Virus record (IMG/VR): IMGVR_UViG_3300032236_001100
Span: 20,756 to 84,755 of that record
Strand: one strand, 5' to 3'
Length of the DNA: 64,000 nucleotides
DNA from: a virus
The position numbers and the translations under genes are program-made. How positions within the stretch are numbered: the stretch's first letter is position 1; the number at the start of each line of letters is the position of its first letter. The notes under the pieces are model-generated. The model worked only from the letters and a program-made list of their open reading frames with translations, was not told the origin of the DNA and searched no databases. Positions 6,700-60,024 of the stretch are shown here, piece after piece.

Positions 6700-7680
6700 T
6701 CAAGCTCCTGGGATGGTATAGCCTCTTCCACGGCAGCTGGGGCAGTTGGTTTTCGTTCCCCGGATGTACCCGGTAGATCCACCTTCCTGCTGGTTGAAAC
6801 AGTCGATGCAGGCCAGCCAGCCGCTCTCTCGGTTGCCGCTCACGTTATTGCCGCCCCGTGGGTGGGGGATACGGTGAAACGTGAATAGCCGCGAGACAAA
6901 CGCGCCTAACGGGGCACCAATTGGACGAGTCCGATCAGCTTCGAGATAAGCCCGTCGAAGCTCTGGCATGTACGTGTCCATTGCACGCCGGTAAGCCAGA
7001 ACGTCGTGGTCAAACCCCACTCGGCATCGTGGCGTCAGTTTGTCACGCACTTTGAGCGTGGCCAGGAACGCCTGGTCGTCGGCTTCAGGGTCGTCAGGAT
7101 CGCCTTCGACCTGAGACTCGACCGGATCGGAAACCGATCCTTCGCCAGCGATTGCCGCTCGCTCGTCGTCACCGCCAGGAATCAGAACTTCAATCTCATC
7201 GGGCGCAACAATGATCGGCTCGTCTAGACTGTCTCCGCGCGAAAACTCCTGCTGTAACCCGTGGGCAGCTTTCTTGACGATAGCTGCGCTCGGTTGCTCG
7301 CCTCCAGCAAGTTCGACGGCCTTGTCCCATGCCTTGATCTTCTCTTCCTGTGGCAGAGAGACCAGAGGCCGGATCTGGGTCTCACTCGTGGGAGTGACGC
7401 TGTGCCCGGCCAGTTCCTCGACGGTCCTGCTCGCCTGGATCAGCCGGTAAGCATGAGCCTTGTGGAAGTTGAACCGATCCCGCATGTACTCCGCAAAGGA
7501 TGGATGCGACTCTCGATACAATCGACGCTCATTGATCTCACGAATCGCATCGCAGATCCTGAGCCACGACTCGAAGTTCCTATCGACCAGCGACTCCAGG
7601 CGTTGCAGATCATCTCGCTCCTTGTCGTCCAAGGGCAGTTCAGACATCAATTCGTTCACATCAACGTGGGACAGACTCAT
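6700..7680 (-). CDS. DNA-binding protein with DUF3102/ParB-HTH-like N-terminus and C-terminal CxxC..CxxC
   Basis: AIREINERRLYRESHPSFAEYMRDRFNFHKAHAYRLIQA..ETQIRPL pattern; CIDC/CPSC. Confidence 0.6.
   Translation of the reverse strand: MSLSHVDVNELMSELPLDDKERDDLQRLESLVDRNFESWLRICDAIREINERRLYRESHPSFAEYMRDRFNFHKAHAYRLIQASRTVEELAGHSVTPTSETQIRPLVSLPQEEKIKAWDKAVELAGGEQPSAAIVKKAAHGLQQEFSRGDSLDEPIIVAPDEIEVLIPGGDDERAAIAGEGSVSDPVESQVEGDPDDPEADDQAFLATLKVRDKLTPRCRVGFDHDVLAYRRAMDTYMPELRRAYLEADRTRPIGAPLGAFVSRLFTFHRIPHPRGGNNVSGNRESGWLACIDCFNQQEGGSTGYIRGTKTNCPSCRGRGYTIPGA
7231..7246. repeat. Degenerate copy (14/16) of 16-bp palindrome
   Basis: GTCTCCGCGCGAAAAC inside the 6700..7680 CDS. Confidence 0.65.
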
Positions 7681-8627
7681 AAAGCAGACTCCTCGGGTGC
7701 GTTGTACTTACGGCCCAGGTCGTTCACGGCATCCTTCCAGCTCGCATAAACGCCCAGTGCCGCGCCAAGGTCGAACAGGCTTAACTTCTCGCCTCGGCCA
7801 AGATCAGAGTAATACCCGCTCGCCACACTGAACGATGCGCTCGGGTTGCGATCCTCAGTACGGATCGACTTGCACTTCACGAAGCTCGAAGCGTTCGGGC
7901 TATGTGTCACAACTCGCAGGCCCCACGCTTCAGCCAAAGCCAATTTATCGAGATCTGGGATCGACTGTATGACGGTACGGTGATTGTAAAATCCACCGCT
8001 CTGCACCTTCGGTCCTTCGTACTGCACAATCGGCTTGAATTCCGACTGGACAGGCGGAACCGAGAAGACCTTGTGTTGCAGCCAGATCGGCATTGCAGCC
8101 GCTTCAGCCTGGTCGTCAGGACCAACGATCCAGCGGTAAGGTATGATCTCGCCGTTCACTTCTTTTGTGCTTGGCGGTATCTTTGCCAACCGCCCGTCAC
8201 CCAGCAGTTCGATCAACTCATGCTTGGCTGTCTCGTCCTTCCAGATGATCCGGTACGGGGCATCCCACCACCACTGAAACCACCACTGCTGGCCACCGCG
8301 AGGCGTGGCAACCACCCAAGTTTTCAGGTTGGGCGTTCCCGCGAGGTCAAGCCAGCGATTCCAGATCTTGATGGCGGTTGGCCCATCGAGATCCAGAACG
8401 ATGTGCGAGGCGACTCTACCCATCGGGATCTGGATATTCGTCTGCCTCTCGCCGCAAGGGCCTTCCCTTGCAGCGAGGCTGGCAAACTTGCTGGCCGACT
8501 GGTCGTTATCCCTGTCTTCCTTGAACGGATAGCAGGGATGACCGTGGACAGGGCACGAGGCCAGAGGATTGAATCCCAAGGCTCGAAATCGGTTGGCGGC
8601 ATCAATCGCCGCTTGAGGCAGGTCCAT
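7677..8627 (-). CDS. Bifunctional primase-polymerase (Prim-Pol)
   Basis: NIQIPMG, VLDLDG, ATPRGG, KIPPS, YRW motifs. Confidence 0.8.
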   Translation of the reverse strand: MDLPQAAIDAANRFRALGFNPLASCPVHGHPCYPFKEDRDNDQSASKFASLAAREGPCGERQTNIQIPMGRVASHIVLDLDGPTAIKIWNRWLDLAGTPNLKTWVVATPRGGQQWWFQWWWDAPYRIIWKDETAKHELIELLGDGRLAKIPPSTKEVNGEIIPYRWIVGPDDQAEAAAMPIWLQHKVFSVPPVQSEFKPIVQYEGPKVQSGGFYNHRTVIQSIPDLDKLALAEAWGLRVVTHSPNASSFVKCKSIRTEDRNPSASFSVASGYYSDLGRGEKLSLFDLGAALGVYASWKDAVNDLGRKYNAPEESAL

Positions 8628-8642
8628 TGCACTGCCCCCTGG

Positions 8643-9668
8643 TCAAAATGGGATCGTGCTTTCCTGGTGCAGAAGCTCTTCGGCCTTCTCGATGAAACGA
8701 GTCAGAAGTTCAGCGTTAGCTTCACGCTGGATATCGGGAATGCTCTGGCCAACCATCCTGCCGATCTCGTCCATCGTTTCCAGGCAGGCAGCGTTATCTA
8801 GAGGCTGGTTGCGAGTCTCGATGATTTTGGCCACGATCTTGCGAACACGGTCTCGCTGCGCCTTAATTGCGAAGTCGCCAGCCGCAGCAACGACCGGCGT
8901 GGAGATCACAGCAGGAGCAGGCTGCTCCGCAGGCGAAGAATTGCCGGTGAACTCATCCAGCTTTTGAACGCAGATGGCGACCATCTCTGCGGTCTGGCCT
9001 TCGTCCCACTCTGACCACTTCGGGGGGAAACCCAAGATCTTGCCCTGCGTACCCACATACTTGAGCAGGTCGCAACCGAACTTGGCGTCCATTTCCTTGG
9101 CCCAGTAAAACAATGCGCCGCCCTTGGCAGGCAGGCGACCATACTGAGCATGAGGCCCTGAATTGGATGGAGTTGGGCCAGCAGGTCGAGGTTGAGCCTG
9201 GGGCTGTGCCTGGTAGCCACCGTTGGACTGCTGCTGAGGCTGACGAGGTGGTTCCTGGTGAGATGCACCGGGCGCATCAGTTCCAGCTTCATAGTCCACC
9301 ACGCCAACATCATAGAGATGCCTGCCCATACCTGTGGCATGAGAAACCGCTCGCTTGAAAGCGTCGGTCACGCCACCTTTGAATTCGGCTACCTGGGTAT
9401 ACTGGCCCGCGCCACTCTTGGTGATGATGCTGCCATCATCCATCTTCATGCTGAACTTGCAGATCACGCCATTGTTGTGGACCTCGTAGTCAGTCCACCA
9501 ATTTTCAGGGCCAAGAACCAAATCCAGGCGATTCTCGTAGCACCTCGCATCGACGTATGCAGCATCACCTGCCCGTTGGCCCTTGCCGAACAAGGGCTTG
9601 TACTTGATCTGCTCTGCGGAAAATGGCTCGCTCAGTGCCTGAAACAGTTTTTCGTACTTTGTGGCCAT
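8643..9668 (-). CDS. Rad52/22-family single-strand annealing protein
   Basis: AYVDAR..NRLD.VLGPENW, KGGVTDAFKRA, GMGRHLY; AGGAG RBS before MATKY. Confidence 0.85.
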   Translation of the reverse strand: MATKYEKLFQALSEPFSAEQIKYKPLFGKGQRAGDAAYVDARCYENRLDLVLGPENWWTDYEVHNNGVICKFSMKMDDGSIITKSGAGQYTQVAEFKGGVTDAFKRAVSHATGMGRHLYDVGVVDYEAGTDAPGASHQEPPRQPQQQSNGGYQAQPQAQPRPAGPTPSNSGPHAQYGRLPAKGGALFYWAKEMDAKFGCDLLKYVGTQGKILGFPPKWSEWDEGQTAEMVAICVQKLDEFTGNSSPAEQPAPAVISTPVVAAAGDFAIKAQRDRVRKIVAKIIETRNQPLDNAACLETMDEIGRMVGQSIPDIQREANAELLTRFIEKAEELLHQESTIPF

Positions 9669-9743
9669 GCTCGCTCCTGTTGTGTTTGAGCAACTCATTA
9701 TTCAAACGAACACTATTGCAACTATGAAAACGATGGCGTTAAC

Positions 9744-9974
9744 TTACTGGTGAGTTGCCAGAGAGTTAACTGGCGATAGAGTTGAACTAGAGCGACTGGA
9801 AGGAGGTGCCAGCACGACTCTCAACTCTTCAATGGCGTCTTCCGCGAGGAACTTCACGGTTCCGTAGTCCTCGTGTGGAATCTGCCTGGAAAACACAAGA
9901 AGGCCGATCAGCCTTCGATCAACGCCAAGAACCTTGGCCACCTGACCAAAAGTCCGTTTCTGATTGTCTCCCAT
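9744..9974 (-). CDS. Cro/excisionase-like small HTH protein
   Basis: RTFGQVAKVLGVDRRLI; divergent from repressor. Confidence 0.6.
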   Translation of the reverse strand: MGDNQKRTFGQVAKVLGVDRRLIGLLVFSRQIPHEDYGTVKFLAEDAIEELRVVLAPPSSRSSSTLSPVNSLATHQ

Positions 9975-9996
9975 GATATTGCCCCAGTGAGTGTCA

Positions 9997-10030
9997 GTTG
10001 CCGTTAACTTGACATCAACATTGTGGCAAC
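9997..10030. promoter_or_regulatory. Tandem operator-like sites in the cro/repressor switch
   Basis: GTTGCCGTTAAC (9997-10008), CTTGACATCAAC (10008-10019, contains TTGACA), ATTGTGGCAAC. Confidence 0.6.
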
Positions 10031-10077
10031 GATTTGGCATCGTGTCAAGCTGACCCACAAACTGAGAGGAGAGTCCG

Positions 10078-10548
10078 ATGGCATTCGGTGAAGAAAACGA
10101 CTATATGACGGCTTATCGCAACCGAATCCGCGAGGTTGCTCGGGCCTATGTCGAAAACAAAAAAATGAAACAGGTAGACTTTGCGGATGTCACCGGCCTG
10201 GGCAAGGAACGGATCTCCGCGATCCTGGGCGACCGGCCAACCTTCACGATCTCGATCTACGTGCTTGAGCATCTGGCCAAGGGCATGGGGACGACCATTG
10301 ACTGGCTGATCAGTGGACGCTCAATCTACCCGCCACCGAAGACATCAGATAAGGGTGGCGACTTGACTGAACAAGAAGCGGAACTGATCCTTTTGGCCAA
10401 AGCTGTCTCCAGTAACGATCCCGAACCGTCACGGTTAATGACGGCTCGGAATCGAATCCTGGGATTGACAAGTCCGGTTCTCGGCCAGGTGGCTCTTCAG
10501 GAACCTGAGAAGACACGCAACGGAGGAACTGGGCGAAAATCGTCCTGA
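10078..10548 (+). CDS. XRE-family HTH repressor
   Basis: MKQVDFADVTGLGKERISAIL...LAKGMGTTIDWLISG. Confidence 0.85.
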   Translation: MAFGEENDYMTAYRNRIREVARAYVENKKMKQVDFADVTGLGKERISAILGDRPTFTISIYVLEHLAKGMGTTIDWLISGRSIYPPPKTSDKGGDLTEQEAELILLAKAVSSNDPEPSRLMTARNRILGLTSPVLGQVALQEPEKTRNGGTGRKSS

Positions 10549-10739
10549 CGAGGAACAACCGTCACGTTACTGATGGCGTACTTGCCATCTTCGGTGATCT
10601 TCCAGTTATTCTGATCGCCGGGATCGAAGAGCCGGGCATCCGAGATCGTGAACTCCAGGCACGTCTCCGACGTGATTGGGATTCGGACTCGGTCCCGGCT
10701 TTCGTCTTTCTGTCCACACTGCACAAAGAAGGAGGGCAT
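10497..10739 (-). CDS. Hypothetical protein
   Basis: GAGAGG RBS before MPSFF; convergent overlap with repressor. Confidence 0.45.
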   Translation of the reverse strand: MPSFFVQCGQKDESRDRVRIPITSETCLEFTISDARLFDPGDQNNWKITEDGKYAISNVTVVPRQDDFRPVPPLRVFSGS

Positions 10740-10849
10740 CGCAATCGCCTCTCTCACACGCAAAAAGGTAAGGTTGAGCTTTCAGATTACCGATGTCGTT
10801 CTTAGTGTGCAATGGTATAGATGCGCGATTTATTTTTCTCACCGATAGC

Positions 10850-11095
10850 AAAAATGGTAAGGGGTGGTAAGGCTAAAATTGGCACAAAGTTGACGTTAAC
10901 ATTAATAGCAACTTACCACGTTAATACTGCCAATAAATAGGTGTACGCAAGAACAATGAAATCCACAATCACTGGTAAATAAATGACTTAGGGATAATTG
11001 TGCTTTTAGAAACTACGATGCGTAGAAAGTGTGTTTGACTCTATAAAATAGATGTTTATGATAATTCTAAAAGTGGTAGGTACCATTTTTAGGAG
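10850..11095. other. Candidate attP / integrase promoter region
   Basis: AT-rich; TGGTAAG direct copies at 10855 and 10865 and inverted at 10912; IHF-like AATAAATGACTTA at 10978-10990; operator GTTGACGTTAAC at 10889. Confidence 0.45.
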
Positions 11096-11102
11096 AACAT
11101 CA

Positions 11103-12194
11103 ATGCCTCGGCTTACTAAAGGGAAAGTTCCCCTCTTACGGCAGCATTCGAGTGGCCAGTGGACCGTCAGGCTGTCAGGTTTCGACCATTACCTTGGGCA
11201 CGACAAGGAAGCCGCTCAGACGAAGTACGGCGAACTGATCGGCCAGTGGGAGTCACGGGGACGCAAGCCAGTCTTTGAGACCAAGACTGACGGCAAGACC
11301 GTGTCCGAGGTCGCTGACCTCTACCTGGAGCATTGCCGGTCCTATTACGTGAAGCGTGGCAAGGTCACGTCTCAGGTCAAGAACATTGAGCAGGCCCTGG
11401 CGGGAATGGTCGAACTGTACGGCAGTGCCCAGATCGACAGCTTTGGGCCACGCGACATGATTAACGTCATTAACCACTGGATCGAATCAGGAATCGTGCG
11501 CAGGTCAGTTAATGACAGGCATCGGATCATTGCCCAGTTCTTCCGCTGGTGCGGAGTCTGGGGCTACTTGCCGGTGGACGCATGGATGAGAGTCAAGGTC
11601 GTCGAGAGCCAGAAGGAGGGCCGCTCTAAGGCCCCCGACCTGCCGGAGCGCGAGCCGCCTCGGTTGGAGCATGTCCGTGCCGTCCAAGAGATCGTCTGCG
11701 ACCGGGTCTCGGACATGATCGAACTCCAGATGATCACCGGCATGCGGTCCTGTGAGATCTGTGCCATGCGACCGCTGGACATCGACATGTCGGGTGAAAT
11801 CTGGGTCTACACCGTCAGACCGGAATTCAACAAGACGACACACAAAAAAAAGAAACGGGTGGTGATGCTTGGCTCCAAATGCCAGGAGATACTGAAAAAG
11901 TACATCGCCATCCGCAAGCCCGACCAGGAGGTGTTTCGGACCCAGTACAATGGACCTTACACTCCACCGAATTATCGGGGCGTGATCCGGTTCTCGTGCA
12001 TCAAGCTCGGGATACCCATCTGGTTTCCCCACCTGCTGCGTCATCATGCCGCCACGGAGATTCGGGCCAAGTACGGCCTTGACGCTGCCAGGGCCATCCT
12101 GGGCCACTCAGACGTGTTCACCACCATGAACTATGCCAAGCCCAGCCCTGACGCTGAACTGACCAAGAGGGTGGTGAAAGACCGCGAAGGTTGA
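11103..12194 (+). CDS. int: Tyrosine integrase
   Basis: TGMRSCE (R), NKT (K), HLLRH, LGHS, TTMNY; AGGAGA RBS before MPRLTK. Confidence 0.93.
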   Translation: MPRLTKGKVPLLRQHSSGQWTVRLSGFDHYLGHDKEAAQTKYGELIGQWESRGRKPVFETKTDGKTVSEVADLYLEHCRSYYVKRGKVTSQVKNIEQALAGMVELYGSAQIDSFGPRDMINVINHWIESGIVRRSVNDRHRIIAQFFRWCGVWGYLPVDAWMRVKVVESQKEGRSKAPDLPEREPPRLEHVRAVQEIVCDRVSDMIELQMITGMRSCEICAMRPLDIDMSGEIWVYTVRPEFNKTTHKKKKRVVMLGSKCQEILKKYIAIRKPDQEVFRTQYNGPYTPPNYRGVIRFSCIKLGIPIWFPHLLRHHAATEIRAKYGLDAARAILGHSDVFTTMNYAKPSPDAELTKRVVKDREG

Positions 12195-12228
12195 CGGTTC
12201 AGCCAGATGCTTCTATCATTGATGTGAA

Positions 12229-12259: not shown

Positions 12260-12374
12260 ACCGAAGCATGGCTCTCGCGTGCGTCGTCCTCTTGTGGGTT
12301 TGGGTCAATAAGAGCCATCTGGTGAAAACCGGGTGGCTCTTATTGTTTGATGGCCAGGCAATGCTAGAATCAAT

Positions 12375-12390
12375 GTCTCCGCGCGGAGAC
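12375..12390. repeat. 16-bp perfect palindrome GTCTCCGCGCGGAGAC, copy 1
   Basis: Exact match; 22 bp upstream of the 12413 start. Confidence 0.95.
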
Positions 12391-12412: not shown

Positions 12413-12913
12413 ATGTACTGCCGACCTTGGATTGACTTGAAGCACAAAAAGAATGGCTACTTCGTGATCCGCGAGGACAACAACGAAGGCGGCAAGAACG
12501 AGGTCATTGCCAAGTACGGACTGGACGAGTACCAGGCTGCACGCGAACGGGCAATTCATGAGACCGAGGAACACAAGAGCCAGTTGACAGAGACTCGCCG
12601 TGATGGCGAAGGCGAGGTCATCTATACCAGCTCGCACGTCAACCAGATGCTTCAGATTGGCAAAGATATCGCAGCCGATTTCTGTCAGCTGTTACTGGAC
12701 GAGAATCGGCTGCCGGTGAAGAAGTGGATTCCTGTGTTCGACGAGGCTTGGAAGGGCATTCCTGAATGCTACAGGCCACACTTGCATCTGCTCGGCCTGG
12801 AGGAAGGGACTCAGGACTGGCATCACATCGAGTACGGTGGTGCCGCTCATGCGATCACGATCTTGAGTCCGATCATGCGTAACCGGCGACCACAGGATTA
12901 TCGCGAGCAGTGA
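12413..12913 (+). CDS. Hypothetical protein
   Basis: 166 aa, GGAG RBS. Confidence 0.7.
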   Translation: MYCRPWIDLKHKKNGYFVIREDNNEGGKNEVIAKYGLDEYQAARERAIHETEEHKSQLTETRRDGEGEVIYTSSHVNQMLQIGKDIAADFCQLLLDENRLPVKKWIPVFDEAWKGIPECYRPHLHLLGLEEGTQDWHHIEYGGAAHAITILSPIMRNRRPQDYREQ

Positions 12914-18735: not shown

Positions 18736-19241
18736 AGCTGATCGTAGGAATTGACCCTGGTATCTCAGGGGGTGTTGCCATCATGGATACTGAAGGCAAT
18801 GCCAAGTCGTGGTATCCCATGCCCGTGACCAATGGCAAGAAGAACACGATTGACCCGGTGGGCCTGAGCGGCCTGCTCATGTACAAAGACGATGTCTTGA
18901 TTGCCGACATCATTAAGCTGTGCGTGATCGAGGATGTTCATGCCATGCCCAAGCAGGGCGTCTCATCCATGTTTTCGTTTGGCAGGTCACTGGGCATCAT
19001 CCAGGGGGTGGTCGCTACGCTGGGCATTCCCTACCAGTTTGTCACGCCCCAGAAGTGGAAGAAAACCGTACTGGACGGGTTCCCCAACAAAGACAAGAAC
19101 GATGCTGCCACGTTCTGTAACCGGCGATGGCCCTATGCTGACTTCCGTGCTTCCACGCGAAGCAAGAAGCCACACGAAGGCATTGTCGAAGCCATGTGCA
19201 TGGCCGAATACGGCAGGAGGGTGCTATGCCCGAACGTGTGA
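18732..19241 (+). CDS. RuvC-like Holliday junction resolvase
   Basis: VGIDPG, VIEDVHAMPKQGVSSMFSFG, VTPQKWKK, EGIVEA. Confidence 0.88.
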   Translation: MKLIVGIDPGISGGVAIMDTEGNAKSWYPMPVTNGKKNTIDPVGLSGLLMYKDDVLIADIIKLCVIEDVHAMPKQGVSSMFSFGRSLGIIQGVVATLGIPYQFVTPQKWKKTVLDGFPNKDKNDAATFCNRRWPYADFRASTRSKKPHEGIVEAMCMAEYGRRVLCPNV

Positions 19242-19974: not shown

Positions 19975-20015
19975 AAAAAACCCGCCTGACCATTTGGCCG
20001 GGCGGGTTCTATTTT
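19975..20015. terminator. Bidirectional terminator between convergent operons
   Basis: A6-CCCGCC...GGCGGG-TTCTATTTT. Confidence 0.8.
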
Positions 20016-20024: not shown

Positions 20025-20040
20025 GTCTCCGCGCGGAGAC
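20025..20040. repeat. 16-bp palindrome, copy 2
   Basis: Exact; overlaps the last base of the sigma-2 TAG stop. Confidence 0.95.
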
Positions 20041-20711
20041 TAATCTTCGAGGATCGCCTTGAGTTCGTCTTTGGCCAGATGATAGAGAACCCTGGCCCAG
20101 CTGCCCGTCACGCCAAACTCGGCTCCAATGTCCGAGAACAGCATCGGGTTGCCATCGTCCCAACCGTGCCGCATCTTGATGATCTCGCGGCTCACGATGG
20201 GTAGCATGTCAAGCATATCGGTCAGATATTCGCGTTCATCCAGATTGTCGATCTGGTGGAAGTCGCCATCGTCCTGCAATCCTTCGCAATGCTCCACCCA
20301 TGTCTCAATCTGGCTCACATCCGTGGCACCCACAGCTTCCAGAGCAAACGCAGCGATCCTCTGGTCATGATACGTGTCTGACTTCACATCGCCAGGCAGT
20401 GGCACAATCAGCATGCCTCGCAGCTTGCGGATCATCCTGCGCAGGATCGACCGCTTGGCATACACATAGAATATCGTGCCTGATGCCAGGTCAAAGTGAC
20501 GTGATGCCAGCAAGAGAGCAATCGAGCCTTCCTGAACCATGTCAGGGGCCAGCGATTGCCGCCTGGGTTTCGACCAGCCGTGCATCACCTGTTTCGCGCA
20601 ATGCTTGATCAGAGGGATATTGATACGAATAAGTTCGTCTGTCGCCTCAGTATCGCCCTGCTGGACGAGAGTGACGAGACGCCGGTTAATGACATCATCT
20701 ATTTCACACAC
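20040..20711 (-). CDS. Sigma-70 family RNA polymerase sigma factor (2)
   Basis: DMVQEGSIALLLASRHFDLASGTIFYVYAKRSI; region 4 FSDIGAEFGVTGSWARVL. Confidence 0.85.
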   Translation of the reverse strand: MCEIDDVINRRLVTLVQQGDTEATDELIRINIPLIKHCAKQVMHGWSKPRRQSLAPDMVQEGSIALLLASRHFDLASGTIFYVYAKRSILRRMIRKLRGMLIVPLPGDVKSDTYHDQRIAAFALEAVGATDVSQIETWVEHCEGLQDDGDFHQIDNLDEREYLTDMLDMLPIVSREIIKMRHGWDDGNPMLFSDIGAEFGVTGSWARVLYHLAKDELKAILED

Positions 20712-28300: not shown

Positions 28301-28507
28301 TCCAACAAAACATGGATTAGATGCCGAGTCCAGTTTGATGGTGACAGGCATACCAAAGGCATACGAACCAGGAGGGCAGATATGCGTCTCGCTGAACGTA
28401 AACGTATCGTTTTCATCGGTCGTGTATTCAAGCATGTTCGGCAGGAACGTGCTGTCGCCTGCCGAAAGATTGACTTGCTGGTTGTTGATGAAAATCGAAA
28501 ATCGCAT
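25334..28507 (-). CDS. Baseplate hub / tail-tip protein with long low-complexity C-terminus
   Basis: Immediately after tape measure; beta-rich first ~630 aa, then G/P/Q/K-rich repeats. Confidence 0.6.
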   Translation of the reverse strand: MRFSIFINNQQVNLSAGDSTFLPNMLEYTTDENDTFTFSETHICPPGSYAFGMPVTIKLDSASNPCFVGKIVDISYDYSEDVQWTISYTAMGLKYWANLIPVISSYDTPDYTFNLRSDDPNYNPSFSGLQVGQMFKIVLDNHMSKLNAAGIYGYIQADLDAMTIVPPDVINIGGPRLLDALQGVLGSWQCRYCIRVQYDTTTGRNYLRFENAFNYGVTTLAFGVDPIDPAQFTCKPDSSDCYGRVEYRGYSKAEAAILSVKEGTLVPTWTTTQQNNWNWDQFANPAGMVSVGSVSSLSTVDCVCTSDNTQESWTANQWNANKAWIYLQYSSGSGSGSITFAESRRLNANNALSKGGSALVSWNGDIPIVGSSYNRYKIVGTQGTSANVWREYSIANSYVASHLMNSFPQPIPWAVATTMQLIKYPASLIFWTNGSTGGYSEYNTACGPALFEVDKVNGIIRFREPTVKPFNTQDNLNKGGSNVTPPYDVRVVVPYSLGSLTASYPADTSGTQNYSGTFYTATGIARTLTFNDDNWVDPRQASQYQAVCQMLQECYKDVKYNGSVTYMGLYTPAIQPRLGLNFSVNEFAGASQDLGLTAINCPVRVTRIVWNSSPNSDNFTTIMDFNNVKQPATGTSYYVHPAFAAVQAGLTATSIEQALSSNNGYGSTLGMDGEFEGLGVEGMNFGGPSGGLGFGFGMPNGFDGPTAEQNGILNDIFSNDAAGLPMRGQQRGQPLEAANPAAAIPGLGTALQGLAGLGEAQAANPASAIPGLGTAVNGLASLGGNQGQPSANPQQAAQSQPQGSSEFVGPPRIGKGPNGEYAVTPPLKAPSIPQFVGPPAPIEGGPKRPNAAESFVAQRQKAANPEGAPAGKDFIGPKDTRSYAQKMIDKKASQEPTLYPTGGKSQDSSNFVGPRDQRSYAQQLQVRKSNEQAEPSNRVSDSPTGDPYDQRSYAEKMRSRKESPDDGEWNDKGRKAARKMIAGNEQGPPQDTSILEGVLSGPRPLSRNEQEAQKPVDSTLPKKPKKYFDKTLKPDYVLDGPDMPQGVSRAFPNLIDD

Positions 28508-33992: not shown

Positions 33993-34910
33993 TCAGACCA
34001 CGGTAACAGCCAGATCCGTGGCAGAAGTCGGGTCAAGGTAGCTGGTGAACGACAGGGTTTCGTACTGGTCGGTTTCCCAGCCGCGATCCACGCTGTAGCT
34101 GTCCAGGTAGTCAGCCGACTGAAGGTTGAACTGCAAGCTGTTGGAGCCGTTCACATACTTCAGCAAGCAGTTCGCCTGAGCGGTCTGATTGACGAATGCC
34201 TGGCGATAGGTGGTATTTTCCTTGGAAAGCACCACGCTCCAGTTCACATTGCGTCCCACGAGGTTGGCACGATTGATCCACTGGCTTTCCAAGAAAGGCA
34301 TGTGGAGCGTGTTGTCAACCGTGATCGAGATGCTCTTGTAACCACTGATCACCGTACCACCGATGGTGATCTGGCCACTGGAGTGATAGTGCGTGTACGG
34401 AATCGTGGCTGGAAAGTCGGTCCCAGGATTGGGAGCCGCCAGCGAGCCAGGAGGCGTATCTTCCTTCTGGGCGATCAGACTGAAGTTACCCATGAGCATG
34501 TCGGACGAGTCATCCGACGTGAACGTGGCCTGATCGACCCGGACCCCGTTGAACCGACGAATTTCAAACCCGTCGAACATGTCCACGGTGTACGAAGGCA
34601 GCTGGTAGCGACCGTTGACCAGCTGAGGAGTACAGGCGAAATTCACCAACGAACCGGCCAGACTGGGCCAGATCGGGATCTTGAGCGAACCGGCCACGCT
34701 CTTGCGGACGATAAACTTCCGCAACTTGCGCTGGAGCGAATTGCATCCTGCGGTGCTGATAGTGAATGGGTTAGGCGTGGTGGTCATATCCATCGCGCCA
34801 GCTTCCATGAAGATGGTATAGAAGCCAGACACGCCAGTAGGGTAAGTACCCCAGTAGTTCTGGTTTTCAAGATACCACTTCGCATATACGCAACTGCCTG
34901 CTACGGCCAT
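33993..34910 (-). CDS. Major tail (tube) protein
   Basis: 305 aa beta-rich; LPSYTVD...RRFNGVRVDQATF; own terminator. Confidence 0.75.
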   Translation of the reverse strand: MAVAGSCVYAKWYLENQNYWGTYPTGVSGFYTIFMEAGAMDMTTTPNPFTISTAGCNSLQRKLRKFIVRKSVAGSLKIPIWPSLAGSLVNFACTPQLVNGRYQLPSYTVDMFDGFEIRRFNGVRVDQATFTSDDSSDMLMGNFSLIAQKEDTPPGSLAAPNPGTDFPATIPYTHYHSSGQITIGGTVISGYKSISITVDNTLHMPFLESQWINRANLVGRNVNWSVVLSKENTTYRQAFVNQTAQANCLLKYVNGSNSLQFNLQSADYLDSYSVDRGWETDQYETLSFTSYLDPTSATDLAVTVV

Positions 34911-34930: not shown

Positions 34931-34946
34931 GTCTCCGCGCGGAGAC
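34931..34946. repeat. 16-bp palindrome, copy 3 (extends to 18 bp)
   Basis: Exact; between the 34953 stop and the tail-tube RBS. Confidence 0.95.
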
Positions 34947-50837: not shown

Positions 50838-53800
50838 TTAGAAAAGCCCCTTGAAACTTGTTCGCCGGAATTCCAGTTCCACTTTTTCTTCGTCGGGTTG
50901 AATCATCAGGTCGGTCAGGGCAAACACCATCGCGTCCATCCGGTTAGGCGACGGTCCACCTGGCTCGAAGTCGCACATCTCGGATTCGAGCTTGGGCAGT
51001 TCGCCAACGATATGGATCTTGCCCTGCTCGGCCAGCGCACCAATTGGCTCGGCTCGCACATATTTCGACCGGCTGGCATGCACCCGCTTCTGCACGATAT
51101 TCGGGTTTACAGCCAGCAGCACGTCTCGCACCATGTCGCCGCCATGATTCGATTCCCAGACCACACTATTGGCCTGATGCCGACCATACGCTTCAGCTAC
51201 TGCCCTGCCCCACGCATCAGGGGAGCCCGATGTCGAGTGATCGCCCAGGATATAGCCGTGGCCATCGGTCCCCAGGCCAGCTACCACAATTCCTGCCTCA
51301 TCACCCTTGCCAGCCTCGGTCGGCATGCCATGCACAAACTTGGCCATGTCGCCAATCTTGCCTGCCGGGTCCACGCCAACCACGACCTTCTTGATATCCA
51401 CGCCATAAGGAACCGCTCGCACACGCAGAGCATCCAGTTGCTCCTGATTCCAGAGTGCGTTTTGGTTCTGGAGCAGCACCTCGGCATGCAACTCCTGACG
51501 ACCGATGCGTGTTCCCTCATATTTGGAGACAACGCTCTCGAAGAACTTCTCTGGCAGATTGTGCCGATTGGCATACGTGGAGGCACGCGACATCACCGTG
51601 AACTTGTCGGCAATAATCGCTCTAAGCGTGGGCGTGGGCTGAGGCGTTGTCGATACTACGATCTGGGGATTAACACCAAGACGCATGCCCAGCAAAAGAT
51701 TATCCCACACCGCAGCTTGGGCCTTTGACCATTTGCAGTTGTGGGTCAGGATGCCGTTTGCAAAATACTCGTGTTCGCCTTCGACCTCGATGTTATAGAC
51801 CGGGCTTCTTTCGGGAAGCCTCTCCACGCTCACGCTTCTCGGCCCAACGCTGCCTTCACGGCAGGAGGTCAGGCTTTTCAGTGTGCTGCCCGGCTTCACA
51901 TTCGCTAGTGGAACCCATCCTTCACCCTCAACCCACACAGGATGCCCAGCAGTACCGACAATGGAACTCCCATCGTCTGCTATCAGGCGATACACAACGG
52001 CTGAATCTGTTGTTTTCCATGCCGCAACGACTGGTCGATAACCAGCACGAGTCAGCACCATGTCGCCAGGAATGACCTGAGAGATTGGCTTATCAGAATT
52101 AACGCAAGTGATTACAGTGTCAGGAGTTAGACACAGTTCGTCGCACCAAGCAAAGTGATGCTGCGGTCCGCGCAGCTGGTCGGGCTGTTCGCCTGAGTAG
52201 ATGTATGCGACCGATCCGTTGGGCCAAACGACCTCGGCTTTCGACGGGATATAGACCGGCGTGAACCAAGGTGGCGATACCGCCAGCAGACCCGACGCAC
52301 CCTCAATTTGCACACGCCGAACTTCGCTGACCGTCTCATTGACCAGAGCAATGCGTATCTGTTCGCCACGGGCAGCGTGTGACTCAACCTGATAGCGAAT
52401 CCACTCGGCAGCAGATCGGGTGTTGTGCGTTGGGATCATCGCCTTGCCAGCCAGGTACATCCTGTTGGGCGAATCTACCGAGATGCATCGCATGAGCTTC
52501 GGCTGGATACGACGAATGCCGACAATCATCCGCTGACGGATCTCCAGGGTGCGTTCCGTGAGATCCTTGAATACCCTGGCTTTACGAGGCAGCGAGAATG
52601 GGTTGAGTAGCGATGGACTCCATGTCACGCGATACTTCGGGCCGTAGTCTTTGCCATTCAGCGTTGCTCGGCCAACGCTCAGGACAGGCTTATCGCCAAG
52701 CGTGCAGACAAGTTCCTTGACGAACTCTGCCAGATGCTCATGCTTGGTGCAGAATTCCACGGTCAGACGACCGGGATCAAAGTATCCATCGCCATCACAT
52801 AGGCCACGCAGTAGTTCAAGACGCTGCTGCACGCTTGCCCTGAGATACCTGCGATCAATATGAAAGTCTCTGGCACCTAAGCTTGTCAGCAGGTCAGAAA
52901 TGCCATAAATGCGTATCCTGGTCTGGCCAGCCGCAACATTCCGTTCGCATGATTCAAACCTGTAACCGTCTTTGGCTAGGCACGACTCGACATGCTTGTC
53001 GTCGAACTCACCGTTCCAGCTGCCTGCCGTTACGTCGTGGTCTCGCTTGCTGCCATTGGCAACGTAGTAGCCCAAAGTCCAAGGCTTGACCGGCAATTCA
53101 ATCTCAGGTAGCTGGAGCGGCCTCGTGCATGGGATCGAGTGGTTGTTGTCCTGACGTTTGCCAGTAAATTGCGTGTCAACAATATCCTGCGTAACCTTGA
53201 CGGTTGGGCCTTTGGAGTTCTTGCGAACCTTGGCTTCGCCTGCCCTATAGCCACCAGCATTTCGGTGCTTGGCATAGGCCGTTCGGCAAACGCCTACCGT
53301 TGTTGATGCGGCTCGCTCAGACATGCCCGAAGCAATCAGTGACGCCATCCGCTCAATTTTGTCTCGGCTTACCCTCATGCCGTTGCCAAGCACCTGCTTG
53401 GAACGCCATTTGACCCAGTCTTCCGGGAAGTCCGAGGAATCCTCGTATTGTGATCGCAGGTAGGCTTTGCGGTCGGCATGGGTCCATGTCACCCACTGGT
53501 GATCGCTGCATGCTTCAATCGTGCTGCCATCCGAAAACTCAAGCTCGTAGGCGACTTCAGGAACCTCAAACGGTGAAATGCTTGTGACTTTGCAAGGCTT
53601 GCCTTGCTCGTCGAACACCTCGTCGCCAACACGCAGCTCGCCCATCGTTGACCAGCCGGTTGGCGTGGCAATCGGCGTTTCGACCGAAAGCAGCTTACCT
53701 GCCGAACGACCTGCCATGAGCAACCAAGCCAGCCACTCGCCAACAGGTGGTCGTTGATGGTCAAGGGCGCGTGGATGCTTCTTGCATGTCTTGGTTTCTG

Positions 53801-53933
53801 GGTTGTACTCACTGCACATGCAGGGTTTACCGTACCAGTCATAGACTGGACCCAGCTTCTTGATCGTCTCTCGCCTGCGAAGTTCGAGTTCAGCGAGAGC
53901 GCGTTGCTTATGCGTGAGTGTGTCGTCAGACAT
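50838..53933 (-). CDS. terL: Terminase large subunit with two inteins (about 475 aa after splicing)
   Basis: Split Walker A GRSAGK/T, LRGPQ, WCDE, VSTTP, GRQEL, VGVDPA, DEAGIVV, PNRMDA. Confidence 0.93.
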   Translation of the reverse strand: MSDDTLTHKQRALAELELRRRETIKKLGPVYDWYGKPCMCSEYNPETKTCKKHPRALDHQRPPVGEWLAWLLMAGRSAGKLLSVETPIATPTGWSTMGELRVGDEVFDEQGKPCKVTSISPFEVPEVAYELEFSDGSTIEACSDHQWVTWTHADRKAYLRSQYEDSSDFPEDWVKWRSKQVLGNGMRVSRDKIERMASLIASGMSERAASTTVGVCRTAYAKHRNAGGYRAGEAKVRKNSKGPTVKVTQDIVDTQFTGKRQDNNHSIPCTRPLQLPEIELPVKPWTLGYYVANGSKRDHDVTAGSWNGEFDDKHVESCLAKDGYRFESCERNVAAGQTRIRIYGISDLLTSLGARDFHIDRRYLRASVQQRLELLRGLCDGDGYFDPGRLTVEFCTKHEHLAEFVKELVCTLGDKPVLSVGRATLNGKDYGPKYRVTWSPSLLNPFSLPRKARVFKDLTERTLEIRQRMIVGIRRIQPKLMRCISVDSPNRMYLAGKAMIPTHNTRSAAEWIRYQVESHAARGEQIRIALVNETVSEVRRVQIEGASGLLAVSPPWFTPVYIPSKAEVVWPNGSVAYIYSGEQPDQLRGPQHHFAWCDELCLTPDTVITCVNSDKPISQVIPGDMVLTRAGYRPVVAAWKTTDSAVVYRLIADDGSSIVGTAGHPVWVEGEGWVPLANVKPGSTLKSLTSCREGSVGPRSVSVERLPERSPVYNIEVEGEHEYFANGILTHNCKWSKAQAAVWDNLLLGMRLGVNPQIVVSTTPQPTPTLRAIIADKFTVMSRASTYANRHNLPEKFFESVVSKYEGTRIGRQELHAEVLLQNQNALWNQEQLDALRVRAVPYGVDIKKVVVGVDPAGKIGDMAKFVHGMPTEAGKGDEAGIVVAGLGTDGHGYILGDHSTSGSPDAWGRAVAEAYGRHQANSVVWESNHGGDMVRDVLLAVNPNIVQKRVHASRSKYVRAEPIGALAEQGKIHIVGELPKLESEMCDFEPGGPSPNRMDAMVFALTDLMIQPDEEKVELEFRRTSFKGLF
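51738..52133 (-). mobile_element. Mini-intein (class 1) just after Walker B
   Basis: 132 aa, CLTPDT...GTAGHP...VYNIEV...ILTHN/C. Confidence 0.9.
52422..53693 (-). mobile_element. Class 3 intein with LAGLIDADG endonuclease, in Walker A
   Basis: 424 aa, LLSVETPIATP...IPTHN/T; HQW, RCISV, THN (W-C-T triad); LLRGLCDGDG. Confidence 0.88.
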
Positions 53934-53942
53934 TAAACTATG

Positions 53943-55129: not shown

Positions 55130-55133
55130 AAAA

Positions 55134-55227
55134 AGCAGTGGCGGGACTCGAACCCGCATGAACCCAACCTAGTCGATTGTCACCGGCCAGGACGTGTCGC
55201 CGTTGTCACATTACGGGCCACACTGCT
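55134..55227 (-). ncRNA. tRNA-like RNA with non-canonical extended anticodon arm
   Basis: 7-bp acceptor AGCAGTG/CACTGCT, perfect T-arm GCGGG-TTCGAGT-CCCGC; no canonical anticodon loop; no CCA. Confidence 0.65.
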
Positions 55228-55305
55228 GAGAACCCCTCAAAGTGTGCGTAGTCAGGACAACCAGAGGCATGAGGGGTGTTGAGCGTCCATGCTCCGAGGT
55301 GTGTA

Positions 55306-55803: not shown

Positions 55804-55807
55804 CAGG

Positions 55808-56122
55808 TCAGTTTCCTGGGGTGATAACCGAAGGCGCATCGGGCAGAACCGACACGAGCTTGTCGATGCTCTCTTGGAGCTTGTCCAACTCGTCCTGAGT
55901 GGGTGCTTCGGCCAGCTGGGCCTTCAGGGCAGCGATGTCGCCTTGCAGGCCAGCAATGTGGGCGATCAGCTTCTCTTGGACGATGGCAAGTTGAGCAATC
56001 TTGTCGGGCAGCTTGGACACGGGGATCTCCTGTTGTGTGACTGATGCCAGGAAAACGGCAGTAAGAAAAAAAATAGCGAAGATTGAAATAAGGGTGACGA
56101 TAACGCTCACTGCATTTCTCAT
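55808..56122 (-). CDS. Membrane-anchored coiled-coil protein
   Basis: N-terminal TM helix then heptads. Confidence 0.55.
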   Translation of the reverse strand: MRNAVSVIVTLISIFAIFFLTAVFLASVTQQEIPVSKLPDKIAQLAIVQEKLIAHIAGLQGDIAALKAQLAEAPTQDELDKLQESIDKLVSVLPDAPSVITPGN

Positions 56123-56136
56123 GTCTGGACTCAGGA

Positions 56137-56152
56137 GTCTCCGCGCGGAGAC
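56137..56152. repeat. 16-bp palindrome, copy 4
   Basis: Exact; 1 bp after the bfr-like stop. Confidence 0.95.
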
Positions 56153-56153
56153 A

Positions 56154-56618: not shown

Positions 56619-56634
56619 TTGTGCTGTGCCCTTC

Positions 56635-57300: not shown

Positions 57301-57794
57301 TTCGGTTTGGTCTTCTTGTTGTCTTTGGTTGTTGGCACCTGCACACACTGAATTTCAGCATTGTGCGGACAGACTTCCGGCTTGCCCAGCTTGGAGACCA
57401 TGTCCACCAACTGCTGGTCCTTGAGCTTCACAGCATCGCTCAAAGATGTAATCTGCTCCTTCAGGCTCTCTCGCTCGGCTTCTGCTCTTGCCCTAGCTTC
57501 AGAGGCAGCGGAAGTCGCCGTGTCGAGCTTGCCGTGCAGAGATAGCACCTGTTCGGCCACATACTCGCGTTGGGCAGCTTCGTCCTTGAGTCGTTCATCA
57601 CGATCCTGCTGGACCTTTTTCTGGCGAAGAGCCAAAAGCGTGGTCCCTACAGAAATAATACCGAGATTCAATACCGTGATCGTTTCGCCCAGTGTAGACG
57701 GCAGATACGATGCAAATAATTGCGATGTTGCTGCGCTGGCATACATGGCATAGCCATAACTGCCAAGCGATGAATGCTCAACGTGCAGAGACAT
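57297..57794 (-). CDS. Membrane coiled-coil protein (holin-like candidate)
   Basis: Hydrophobic segment then long coiled coil. Confidence 0.45.
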   Translation of the reverse strand: MSLHVEHSSLGSYGYAMYASAATSQLFASYLPSTLGETITVLNLGIISVGTTLLALRQKKVQQDRDERLKDEAAQREYVAEQVLSLHGKLDTATSAASEARARAEAERESLKEQITSLSDAVKLKDQQLVDMVSKLGKPEVCPHNAEIQCVQVPTTKDNKKTKPK

Positions 57795-57946
57795 GAGTCC
57801 ATCTCCATTTCATTCGGGCAAATGGCCCGAAAATATGATTTCCATATAAGATGGCTGCGTCACCGTTGACGCCTTTTTACTCAAATCGTCGCAAGTTGCC
57901 ACTGCGAGGCGAGTTAAAAAATGTGGATTTTCGCGCCGAGGTCGAT

Positions 57947-58630
57947 TTAGCTCACGGCCTGATCAGAAACGAGTGGGCAAGGGACTTCGTAGGGGCTATA
58001 CCGCGAGCCATCGCTGTTGAACAGGTTGCCATCGTCGTCCGAGTGCAGGATCTTCACGTCTGAGCCTGACTGAGACGGATTTGGACCGAGGTTGAGGGCA
58101 ATGGCGCGGATCTTGTCGGCCAGCCGACTGTTCATGGCGGCATCCAGACCATCGGCAATCAGTATTAGCTCGGAGACCGGGTCTAAGGCCACTTGCTTGA
58201 GAATGCCCTTGGTTTCGCTCGCAATCAATTGCAAGGACAAAGGCGTGTCTTCTTCGGCTTCTAGTACGCGAGGGCCACCAGGGAGCCCCAGAGACGGCAC
58301 AGACCCATTCTGAATTCGCTTGAACGCTTCGTCCCACCCGTTGCGAATGTCGGCAATAATGTGTTCGTACCAGTAGAGCAGATCCCACCGCTTCTCGGGA
58401 TCAAGTGTAGCGATGAAAGCCTGAATCCGGCTGATCACCCAGGCTTTCATCGCTTCCGGCGTTTCGCCGTACAGTGATCCCTGGCGCGTGAGCTTGAGGT
58501 ACTCATCGGCGGCACGCCAGAATGCCTCGACGTAGCCACAGTCCGATCCCAGGCCGTCCAGCATGCCTTCGTCGATCTGGACCTTGAATGTTGCCTGGCC
58601 CTGCCAAGAACCCATAAATTGGACAATCAT
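57947..58630 (-). CDS. Hypothetical protein
   Basis: 227 aa, acidic. Confidence 0.65.
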   Translation of the reverse strand: MIVQFMGSWQGQATFKVQIDEGMLDGLGSDCGYVEAFWRAADEYLKLTRQGSLYGETPEAMKAWVISRIQAFIATLDPEKRWDLLYWYEHIIADIRNGWDEAFKRIQNGSVPSLGLPGGPRVLEAEEDTPLSLQLIASETKGILKQVALDPVSELILIADGLDAAMNSRLADKIRAIALNLGPNPSQSGSDVKILHSDDDGNLFNSDGSRYSPYEVPCPLVSDQAVS

Positions 58631-58639
58631 ATCCGCTTG

Positions 58640-59280
58640 TCTCTGGTGCTATGTATTACAATTGTAAGACATGGTTATTTTCTCTGCGCAGACCCGTCCC
58701 ATTATGGGTCATGTATCTTATCTCTGCCTTTACTTCTTGTATTGCTGGGTCTGTCTGGTACTTGCTGTACTTGACTGGCCCTGTGTTGTGCTTGTCTCGC
58801 TTCTCAACACCTGCTGAAGCAATAACAGGTCAACACACAATACAAGATCCAAGACTGAGATCAGTTCCACGAGGCGTCTGTAACAGCTCGAACCTGCAAA
58901 CTCGTCACTACTGCCAGGAGAACCACTTGCGTGGCCATGACCCCCAGGTCGTCAGGGGAACGACGTAGCCTGGAATTTTGAAAAGATGGCATTCGCGACG
59001 TTCGGGTACTGCGTGCCGGGTAACATCGCAGCTGGATCTATCCAGGCACTTGCCTGGTCAACCCTAGTTCCCCCGCAGTATGGCGGGGTCAGGTAAACAG
59101 TAACCAGCATGGCTGGGGAAGCGAACACGGCTAAAGCAAACCCGTGCCACAGAGGCCACCCCTGAAGGGTGTTGAAGACGTGTGGCTTTTACGGCTACGG
59201 CTTTTCACCACGACCGATCACTGTTTTCGCTGGAAAGACAATCCGGTGAAGGCGAACTGCACCTCCACCATAGTAATAAT
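58640..59280. ncRNA. Candidate long structured noncoding RNA or structured DNA element
   Basis: About 650 bp without a credible CDS, with at least 10 inverted-repeat stems. Confidence 0.4.
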
Positions 59281-59320
59281 AACTTGAAATTAAGTTGGCG
59301 GCAAGTCAATGCGGCTATTT

Positions 59321-59872
59321 TTACCACCAGCGGGTCCATTGGTACTTGCCAGGAACGATTTCATCGGCAAAACAGACCGTGCATTCGCCCACAACCCAGG
59401 CCAGACGGCCCGACTTCAGCTCGAACTTGACCGGCTTACCCTTGCCCTGGTCGCCTTGCAGCCGATACTTCCAGTATCCGGTCGCATCAGGAAGGCTATC
59501 AGACCATGATTCGACCACAAATTGCCGCTTTGGCCGAAAAAACGCCTTGTTTTTGGCTTTTTTCCTGTTTTTCTTCTGCGAACGGGTCTTTTTTCGGTGA
59601 CTGAGCGTGACTTCCACCACGCCGACCGGCTTTCCCGTGTCGCTCCAGTCCGGTTCGCACTCCCACGGGGCATCAGTCTCCGCGCGGAGACTGTTTTGAG
59701 CCTGCCCTGACTCAATCGCCCAGGAAAAATACATCTGTTTGCCGGTGGTAGGCCGGTTCTTCCATGCGTCCAGCACCAGCTTGGCCTCGGCGGCAAGCTG
59801 GGCACGCCGGTCAAAGGCCCTGCGGATGGCATTGGAAGCCAGGGAGATCGGGTTGGCGGCAAGCTCGCCCAT
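59321..59872 (-). CDS. Hypothetical protein with K/R-rich segment
   Basis: Start placed at MGELAANP; contains palindrome copy 5 in frame (SLRAET). Confidence 0.55.
   Translation of the reverse strand: MGELAANPISLASNAIRRAFDRRAQLAAEAKLVLDAWKNRPTTGKQMYFSWAIESGQAQNSLRAETDAPWECEPDWSDTGKPVGVVEVTLSHRKKTRSQKKNRKKAKNKAFFRPKRQFVVESWSDSLPDATGYWKYRLQGDQGKGKPVKFELKSGRLAWVVGECTVCFADEIVPGKYQWTRWW
59676..59691. repeat. 16-bp palindrome, copy 5 (extends to 20 bp)
   Basis: CAGTCTCCGCGCGGAGACTG at 59674-59693. Confidence 0.95.
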
Positions 59873-60008
59873 TGCAAGCCTCGAAACGCATGTTGCTAAT
59901 GAATGTACATCAACATCATAGCAACAAAAAACGAGGATGCAAAAGGATTCGCTGCACATTCCTGCGCATTGCTGCGAATCCCTGCGTCTGGATGCGTCTG
60001 ATCTACGT

Positions 60009-60024
60009 GTCTCCGCGCGGAGAC
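60009..60024. repeat. 16-bp palindrome, copy 6
   Basis: Exact; 4 bp after the 60029 stop. Confidence 0.95.

Follow-up and report, generated by a model that had tools for sequence, protein, structure and literature searches.

The linear virus contig IMGVR_UViG_3300032236_001100 of the IMG/VR database (84,755 bp; hereafter G0) carries a perfect 16-bp palindrome, GTCTCCGCGCGGAGAC, in multiple exact copies at gene junctions. The stretch analysed here in detail, referred to as the window, comprises 64,000 nucleotides (nt), i.e. bases 20756-84755 of the contig; positions are those of the window unless stated otherwise. An initial annotation of this DNA had proposed that a dedicated dimeric protein uses the 16-mer to mark the whole phage chromosome for segregation, compaction or transcriptional roadblocking or, alternatively, that the 16-mer is an RNA hairpin at cistron junctions. 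Here, we report that the 16-mer is invariant in two diverged phages and is tied to translation starts, and we discuss what may read it.

Results

An exact palindrome dispersed over a temperate phage genome

By its gene content, as annotated with Pfam and PHROGs, G0 is a temperate tailed phage. The genes for integration and immunity encode a tyrosine integrase, a serine recombinase and an XRE-type repressor, and those for transcription two sigma factors. Replication and nucleotide metabolism are represented by a helicase, a Rad52-like protein, a beta clamp, ThyX, a deoxynucleoside monophosphate kinase and a dUTPase, and structure and packaging by an SU10-type major capsid protein, a putative portal, a tail tube protein and an intein-bearing terminase large subunit. 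Because the tyrosine integrase and the serine recombinase are both encoded, the phage probably integrates. The homologues of the capsid protein include prophages of Isosphaeraceae and Tautonia and, therefore, a host among the Planctomycetota appears likely.

Exact copies of the 16-mer start at positions 12375, 20025, 34931, 56137, 59676 and 60009, and a 14/16 copy starts at 7231. These are precisely the copies listed in the initial annotation, and two further exact copies lie 5' of the window at positions 6342 and 19343 of G0. Thus, the mismatch spectrum of the whole contig comprises eight exact copies, no copy with one mismatch and one copy with two mismatches; together, these copies extend over 74 kb of the genome and occur at junctions between genes. 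Among 100 dinucleotide shuffles, the mean number of matches with at most two mismatches was 0.02 and none of the 100 reached seven, while Markov models of order 0-4 give 1e-6 to 4e-5 expected exact copies per genome. The earlier argument against chance therefore stands, with about 1e-5 copies expected compared to six exact copies in the window and eight in the contig. The A or T that had been noticed on both sides of each copy is present at all nine copies in G0, but this feature does not extend to the related phage G1 described below, in which only 4 of 10 flanking bases are A or T. Neither the 16-mer nor its 14-mer core was found in the papers searched.

Conservation of the 16-mer in a diverged relative

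An exact-match scan of the 2.9 million contigs in IMG/VR identified the 16-mer in just two other contigs, G1 and G2. G1 (87.4 kb, 46% GC), which comes from a different sample, is syntenic with G0, the identity being about 65-70% for nucleotides and about 50% for proteins. It contains five exact copies plus a single 14/16 copy. G0 and G1 have two orthologous sites in common, i.e. the one at the 3' end of the dUTPase gene and the one at the junction between a 168-aa gene and the tail tube gene. At both, the flanks have diverged, and the distance from the tail-tube site to the ATG is 20 and 17 nt in the two phages. The remaining sites are lineage-specific, with no trace of the 16-mer left at the corresponding junctions of the other phage. 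A strain from a second sample (run X2), which is about 92-93% identical to G0, retains the 16-mer at sites A, D and F with changed flanks; in this run, pieces of other contigs match only over the 20 nt that surround the motif, and the altered flanks of these three sites can be recognised in their loose ends. Because there are 13 exact copies and no one-mismatch copies in two phages with about 50% protein identity, and because the orthologous junctions and the X2 strain keep the 16-mer despite changed flanks, all 16 positions are under purifying selection. To this extent the earlier interpretation is supported, the element being real, selected and phage-specific.

In more distant relatives with a capsid identity of at most 45%, no comparable repeat was present within the 20 kb read from each, and a tail-tube alignment search of metagenome and viral collections identified no new relatives. 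G2 (87.6 kb, 68.5% GC, direct terminal repeats) is an unrelated phage that shares only the terminase with G0. It has two exact copies and two identical 14/16 copies (GTCTCCGCGCGGGGCC) compared to 1e-4 to 1e-3 expected. These copies (L013:15706, L014:13285, L015:1230 and L016:5565) are mostly intragenic, lack an association with starts and, in three of the four cases, follow CGAAG or CGAG. Given that 2.9 million contigs were scanned, the copies in G2 may be due to chance.

Among the matches listed for bacterial genomes and metagenomes, the 16-mer occurs as scattered single copies in diverse unrelated taxa, and none of the contigs listed is related to the phage. In one of them, L276 (50% GC), the 16-mer serves as a terminator core: two convergent genes (L276:2436-2730) end in an identical 22-bp stem, AGGGTCTCCGCGCGGAGACCCT, which in one case is followed by a T-run. 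The metagenome contig L283 (100-1300; also L263) has a degenerate array with a 61-nt period that resembles a CRISPR array, and its "spacers" are differing short palindromes between an A-run and a T-run, one of which is the 16-mer.

Association of the sites with translation starts

Counting the near-copies, 10 of the 15 real copies in G0 and G1 end 14-23 nt before a start codon and 5' of the Shine-Dalgarno (SD) sequence. With the sites oriented by the flanking genes, the distances from site end to start codon are 23, 23, 22, 20 and 14 nt in G0 and 21, 17, 17, 19 and 23 nt in G1, and at each of these 10 junctions a separate SD sequence lies 4-11 nt past the site end. To score this association by an objective rule, we called a site start-associated if an ATG or GTG with an SD-like word and an open reading frame (ORF) of at least 50 aa was located 10-30 nt downstream. 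By this rule, 7 of the 13 exact copies are start-associated compared to 5.9% of genome positions (P = 3e-6). Four of the gaps are long (118, 218, about 750 and 108 nt), and in each of them the site occupies the end nearest to the start. Across early, late and accessory regions, 10 of the 13 exact copies are either intergenic or contained in the final codons of a gene. The dUTPase site is of the latter kind; it encodes ESPRGD of motif V and is separated by 23 nt from the next ATG in both phages. The copy at 60009 is intermediate with 49 nt to the next start, and the G1 copy at 5005 is located 11 nt after a stop. Thus, the sites are tied to translation starts and are neither scattered nor clustered, which does not bear out the proposed marking of the whole chromosome.

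Genes and elements around the individual copies

Site D (12375..12390) is 180 nt past the stop of the tyrosine integrase gene and 22 nt 5' of the ATG of a 166-aa ORF (12413..12913, + strand), which matches no family and is the first gene of an approximately 3-kb segment absent from G1. A promoter-like element, TTGTTT-16-TAGAAT (12343-12370), ends 4 nt 5' of this site; a second such element, TTGCCA-17-TAGAAT, ends 22 nt 5' of another site. Site E (20025..20040) abuts the stop of a sigma factor gene (20040..20711, - strand) and is not followed by a gene start; the second sigma factor is encoded at 2329-3081 (- strand). Site F (34931..34946) is 6 nt after the stop of the 168-aa gene, directly 5' of AAGGAGA and 20 nt 5' of the ATG of the tail tube gene (33993..34910, - strand; PF18906, E 5e-17), and the orthologous position is the one occupied in G1. 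The copy at 56137..56152 follows the stop of a ferritin-like gene by 1 nt and precedes by 14 nt the ATG of a 104-aa membrane protein ORF (55808-56122, - strand) that opens a putative lysis cluster. The copy at 59676..59691 lies within a 212-aa ORF (59321-59959, - strand), where it encodes SLRAET and has no association with a start. The copy at 60009..60024, at a distance of 333 bp from the former, is 4 nt after the stop of a 76-aa ORF (60029-60259, - strand) and 49 nt 5' of the ATG of the 212-aa ORF. On re-checking the flanking genes, the placements given earlier for the copies relative to stops, starts and reading frames were all correct. The ORFs adjoining the sites (151, 166, 212, 76 and 58 aa) have no family in Pfam or PHROGs.

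The 14/16 copy at 7231..7246 is located in the gene at 6700-7680, in the stretch coding for a disordered linker; probably, this site is weak or due to chance. It is accompanied by two 11/16 copies upstream on the + strand, at distances of 63 bp (7168) and 129 bp (7102). The resulting arrangement of three copies with at most five mismatches and a spacing of 63-66 bp (7102-7246) recalls an origin within an initiator gene but is statistically weak, and neither the 7231 copy nor its two neighbours are conserved in G1.

Two observations concern other parts of these genomes. Bases 5-90 of the G0 contig, 20.7 kb 5' of the window, hold five tandem copies of the palindrome ACTGGCCAGT with a 19-bp period, and the G1 contig starts and ends in an array of CCGGACGTCCGG with a 24-26 bp period (L008:20-60 and L012:7323-7390). 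The arrays occupy an equivalent genome position beside a weak TerS-like gene, differ in sequence, and may be pac-like or origin-like iterons. The presence of the same array at both ends suggests that the G1 contig is essentially complete. Furthermore, the terminase large subunit gene (50838-53933, - strand) encodes HINT/intein and LAGLIDADG domains, and the strain of run X2 joins 52421 to 53694 in this gene. With 1272 nt skipped, this strain therefore has an allele without one of the inteins.

Putative readers encoded by the phage

The best candidate for a reader of the 16-mer, although a doubtful one, is the 326-aa protein encoded at 6700..7680 (- strand) in the replication module, which shares 48% identity with its counterpart in G1. 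Neither Pfam nor PHROGs gave a match for this protein, and it lacks a ParB_N domain. In its high-confidence structure model (mean predicted local distance difference test score (pLDDT) 88), a ParB-type fold in residues 18-147 is followed by a disordered acidic linker and a C-terminal helical and Cys4 domain. Residues 18-147 superimpose on Spo0J-parS 4umk_C with Z 10.4 and a root-mean-square deviation of 3.3 A over 117 residues. Other matches are ParB 6t1f_D (Z 10.0), 1vz0_B (Z 9.8), Noc 7ol9_B (Z 8.6), KorB 8qa9_A (Z 6.3) and SopB 3mkz_N (Z 5.4), and several of the structures were solved on palindromic DNA. The alignment to ParB starts past the CTPase domain of ParB, and the Foldseek E-values are weak (at least 0.017). 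Thus, the protein is predicted to have a DNA-binding fold of the ParB/Spo0J/Noc/KorB type, the likeness being one of fold only. A dimer model scored 0.73 compared to 0.00 for the best control, with a partner pLDDT of at least 71 and at least 50% of contacts shared between runs; among proteins of solved structure, 20 of 30 pairs and 1 of 23 single chains attained the mark for dimers. The modelling thus supports that the protein pairs as a symmetric homodimer, and the predicted fold and pairing sustain its earlier naming as a candidate.

A match to PF02195, the ParB_N CTPase domain, was found at E <= 0.01 neither in G0, whose contig lacks about 12 kb, nor in G1 or G2, while control genomes matched. 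With the single ParA model tried, AAA_31, no ParA partner was found in G0, G1 or G2.

We also considered an exact 16-mer in a bacterial homologue (L104) as a link between reader and site. This was rejected as a coding coincidence because the family consensus at this position is LSPxG and the 16-mer encodes LSPRGD; the L104 genome has no multi-copy enrichment of the 16-mer.

The second candidate reader is a 90-aa HTH_23 protein encoded approximately 270 nt beyond the conserved dUTPase site (contig 18803-19075, - strand), the recognition helix of which is conserved in G1. Upstream of its gene is a sigma-70-like promoter, TTGCGT-17-TATGAT (contig 19076-19143; L011:9040-9103 in G1), within which GTTATGATATA is conserved in both phages. 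As for the XRE-type repressor (10078-10548), CAACATTGTGGCAAC is conserved 5' of its gene in both phages (10020-10078 in the window; L010:18210-18260 in G1) and, by this conservation, is probably the operator of the repressor itself. Given this separate candidate operator, the repressor probably does not read the 16-mer.

Rejected origins of the repeat

A host repeat similar to repetitive extragenic palindromic elements was rejected. In 401 Planctomycetota genomes, there are at most four copies each at up to one mismatch, and exact copies are present in only two of the 401, one in each; a control with the reversed pattern gave about half as many matches. This negative result, which answers the concern in the initial annotation about abundant host copies, covers the sampled Planctomycetota, the host of G0 itself not being identified. 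An assembly or adapter artefact, the other concern raised there, is excluded by the separate samples of G1 and of the X2 strain and by an independent Logan assembly of run X1 with 0 differences.

Likewise, an intrinsic terminator was rejected for G0: no copy has a T-run, and one copy is inside the dUTPase coding sequence. At site E, a canonical intrinsic terminator, CCCGCC...GGCGGG followed by TTTTTT (19975..20006, - strand), sits 18 nt downstream and, therefore, the 16-mer is not the terminator there, in agreement with what had been pointed out before. Finally, a promoter for a phage sigma factor or RNA polymerase was rejected because the flanks share no motif besides the SD sequence. GGxCAAC-like words occur near the sites at inconsistent distances, and no RNA polymerase family was found among the large proteins. 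Rfam and tRNA scans of the window found nothing.

Discussion

Based on these observations, we suggest that the 16-mer is an operator or roadblock DNA site for a symmetric homodimeric protein that is most probably encoded by the phage; we assign this model a probability of about 45%. In this model, the homodimer would read both halves of the 16-mer as duplex DNA. The site would be placed between the transcription start, or the upstream cistron, and the SD sequence of selected genes, i.e. the tail tube gene, the gene of the small membrane protein with which the putative lysis cluster begins, and a number of accessory genes. The bound site would then act as a lac-type operator or as a transcriptional roadblock, and would in this way gate the downstream cistron. 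Accordingly, of the role proposed in the initial annotation, the dimeric reader remains plausible and an operator or roadblock fits the positions of the sites, while segregation and compaction do not.

Several features argue for reading as DNA. The palindrome is perfect through its centre, and the loop of a hairpin would be self-complementary by chance in about 1 of 16 cases. Because a palindromic centre is not required of an RNA loop, a two-fold symmetric DNA reader is favoured. Moreover, the stems of the 16-mer never covary; the CUGACC-loop leader hairpins of G0 have a different stem in each copy. The 14/16 copy at 28439 in G1, 17 nt before an ATG, has two non-compensatory changes that keep the core TCCGCGCGGA and shift the RNA hairpin from -8.3 to -1.9 kcal/mol. 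The geometry of the sites also favours an operator, and the two sites with a promoter-like element just upstream resemble the lac operator.

A number of points weigh against this model. The tight spacing to start codon and SD sequence suits a role at the level of translation or RNA at least equally well, and at the early junction at genome position 6324 the 16-mer fills the slot that holds an RNA hairpin in the sister leaders. The G1 copy at 5005, with its AAAG/CTTT flanks, is embedded in a terminator-type A-run/T-run hairpin, and the 16-mer is the core of such hairpins in the unrelated contigs L276, L283 and L227. A sigma-70-like promoter upstream is convincing at only 2 of 14 sites, the others being at background level, and three exact copies (20025, 59676 and 5005 in G1) are away from any start. 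With regard to the candidate reader at 6700-7680, a Z of about 10 for helical domains can mirror a common arrangement. The protein belongs to a very large family (15,428 clusters at 50% identity and E <= 1e-3) that lacks a Pfam model; two other members of the family have no repeated palindrome nearby, and G2, with its two exact copies, has no member at all.

The most serious rival is that the 16-mer functions in RNA, and this explanation is possible but on the whole unlikely. Here, transcripts would form a leader or intercistronic hairpin with a 6-bp stem and a GCGC loop just 5' of the ribosome binding site. The hairpin might stabilise the 5' end after processing, be a site for a sequence-specific RNA-binding protein or endoribonuclease, or function as an anti-SD or SD-decoy switch; consistent with the last mode, GUCUCC of the 16-mer is complementary to an SD sequence of the GGAGAC type. 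The spacing at the 10 start-associated junctions and the start-proximal position in long gaps fit this explanation, as does the dUTPase site, which is built into the last codons such that the 23 nt to the next ATG are kept in both phages. At junction 6324, the 16-mer substitutes for the CUGACC-loop hairpin of the sister leaders. The hairpin (-8.3 kcal/mol) is present in the minimum free energy fold at most sites, and the identical 16-mer is used as a terminator stem in other contigs. In two G1 leaders, the 5' arm of the 16-mer pairs with the real SD sequence instead of forming the hairpin. Against an RNA hairpin, there is neither covariation nor G-U variation in 13 copies across a deep divergence, and the near-copy at the canonical position loses the stem without compensation. 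Also, the loop forms a palindrome in its own right, and GCGC does not count among the exceptionally stable tetraloops. A role in processing or termination would cut the dUTPase mRNA ahead of its stop codon, the most highly expressed genes, e.g. the major capsid gene, have no site before them, and the window has no Rfam family. Thus, the hairpin at cistron junctions proposed earlier survives as a serious rival.

Inspection by eye of 11 early junctions (contig 5164-11930) revealed a different element, ACCCC-N5-7-GATTTTT, often with a CTGACC-loop hairpin on differing stems and the SD sequence CGAGAGGA. These junction elements look like a second, separate leader system.

It is improbable that the reader lies outside the phage genome, i.e. 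that the phage recruits a regulator or nucleoid protein encoded by the host. In favour of this, G0 and G1 have the identical 16-mer although they differ in their other repeat arrays, and the unrelated G2 has more copies than expected. But the 401 Planctomycetota genomes have at most four copies each, and the copies in G2 are mostly intragenic and could be chance in a scan of this size.

Even less probable is that the repeats are recombination or cassette boundaries at which accessory genes are exchanged or inserted. Site D opens the 3-kb segment specific to G0, site A precedes a 151-aa ORF that is also specific to G0, and the copies at 59676 and 60009 likewise flank genes that are absent or poorly conserved in the relative; in addition, the orthologous junctions without a site show no remnant, and the phage encodes two recombinases. 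Nevertheless, two sites are stably kept at the core genes for dUTPase and tail tube, and cassette boundaries leave the constant distance to the start codon unexplained. To our knowledge, 6-bp arms with a 4-bp centre are too short for the core site of a known tyrosine or serine recombinase.

Least probable of all is a ParABS-type centromere or Noc-like marking for segregation or compaction: the perfect 16-bp palindrome has the right format, a protein with a predicted ParB/Noc-type DNA-binding fold is encoded with a degenerate copy inside its gene, and phage N15 has four dispersed inverted-repeat centromere sites (PMC7205306), but neither ParB_N nor ParA/AAA_31 was found, including in G1, which is bounded by the same array at both ends, the phage encodes integrases, the sites follow translation starts rather than the reader gene or an origin, and by direct comparison the 16-mer is unlike parS (TGTTNCACGTGAAACA), the Noc binding site and the KorB operator OB.

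Returning to the operator or roadblock model, we compared the 16-mer with known dispersed repeats. It has the defining features only of a loosely defined class, the lineage-specific dispersed dyad repeats. In form, its nearest analogue may be the 17-bp dyad repeat 5'-TGTTCGGNNNCCGAACA of Cluster O mycobacteriophages, the function and reader of which are unknown (PMC4351075). Both are short, dyad-symmetric and lineage-specific with invariant arms, both are dispersed, mostly between ORFs or near the 5' ends of genes, and in both the position is kept among relatives. However, the Cluster O repeat is present in more than 30 copies per genome compared to 8 in G0 and 5 in G1, its centre is a variable 3 bp while all 16 positions are invariant here, no fixed spacing to start codons is reported for it, and the host is different.

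In mechanism, the closest analogues would be stoperators and the KorB-OB system. The stoperators of Cluster A mycobacteriophages halt transcription elongation when bound by a phage protein (PMC9283540, PMC6550527) and, like the 16-mer, consist of one short site that recurs many times in the short intergenic stretches of several operons. By contrast, stoperators are 13-14 bp long and asymmetric, point in the direction of transcription and are recognised by an immunity repressor that is monomeric, while the 16-mer is a perfect palindrome and the XRE-type repressor of G0 has a different conserved candidate operator, CAACATTGTGGCAAC. KorB of plasmid RK2 controls a global regulon through OB, slides on DNA by means of a CTP-binding N-terminal clamp and, with the partners KorA and IncC (ParA), also partitions the plasmid (PMC11790492). 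This system combines a palindrome dispersed on a mobile replicon with silencing by a dimer that has a ParB-type helix-turn-helix, and the candidate reader is predicted to share this fold. Unlike in KorB-OB, neither a CTPase domain nor ParA was found here, the 16-mer is unrelated in sequence to OB (TTTAGCGGCTAAA), and the sites are start-proximal.

With respect to the association with starts, the start-associated sequences (SAS) and extended SAS (ESAS) of Cluster K phages may be the nearest analogue. These conserved repeats, the function of which is unknown, are linked to the translation starts of some genes only, recur across subclusters at genes of different families and do not occur in the host genome (PMC3203893). 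SAS/ESAS and the 16-mer are both placed relative to the starts of a gene subset, are conserved across relatives and are not host repeats. However, SAS is 13 bp long and asymmetric, includes the SD sequence and is 3-7 bp from the start, while the 16-mer is palindromic and 14-23 nt upstream with a separate SD sequence.

Dispersed, invariant junction repeats are known in a few well-sampled phage groups, and there the reader and function are mostly unknown. In the case described here, the site is very sharp, its geometry with respect to start codons is defined and there is a concrete candidate for its reader; one binding result could assign a function to both the repeat and the 6700-7680 family. 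In its most specific and rather unlikely form, our model holds that a dimer of this CTPase-less protein with a ParB-type domain binds the 16-mer about 20 nt 5' of late, lysis and accessory starts. If so, a tailed phage would have a KorB-like global regulon without a sliding clamp or partition function, and a very large uncharacterised family would gain a function. If, on the other hand, the 16-mer acts in RNA, it would represent an unusual sequence-specific leader hairpin system beside a second, covarying class of hairpins in the same phage. In either case, the 16-mer extends the still limited picture of how phages of Planctomycetota-like hosts regulate their genes.

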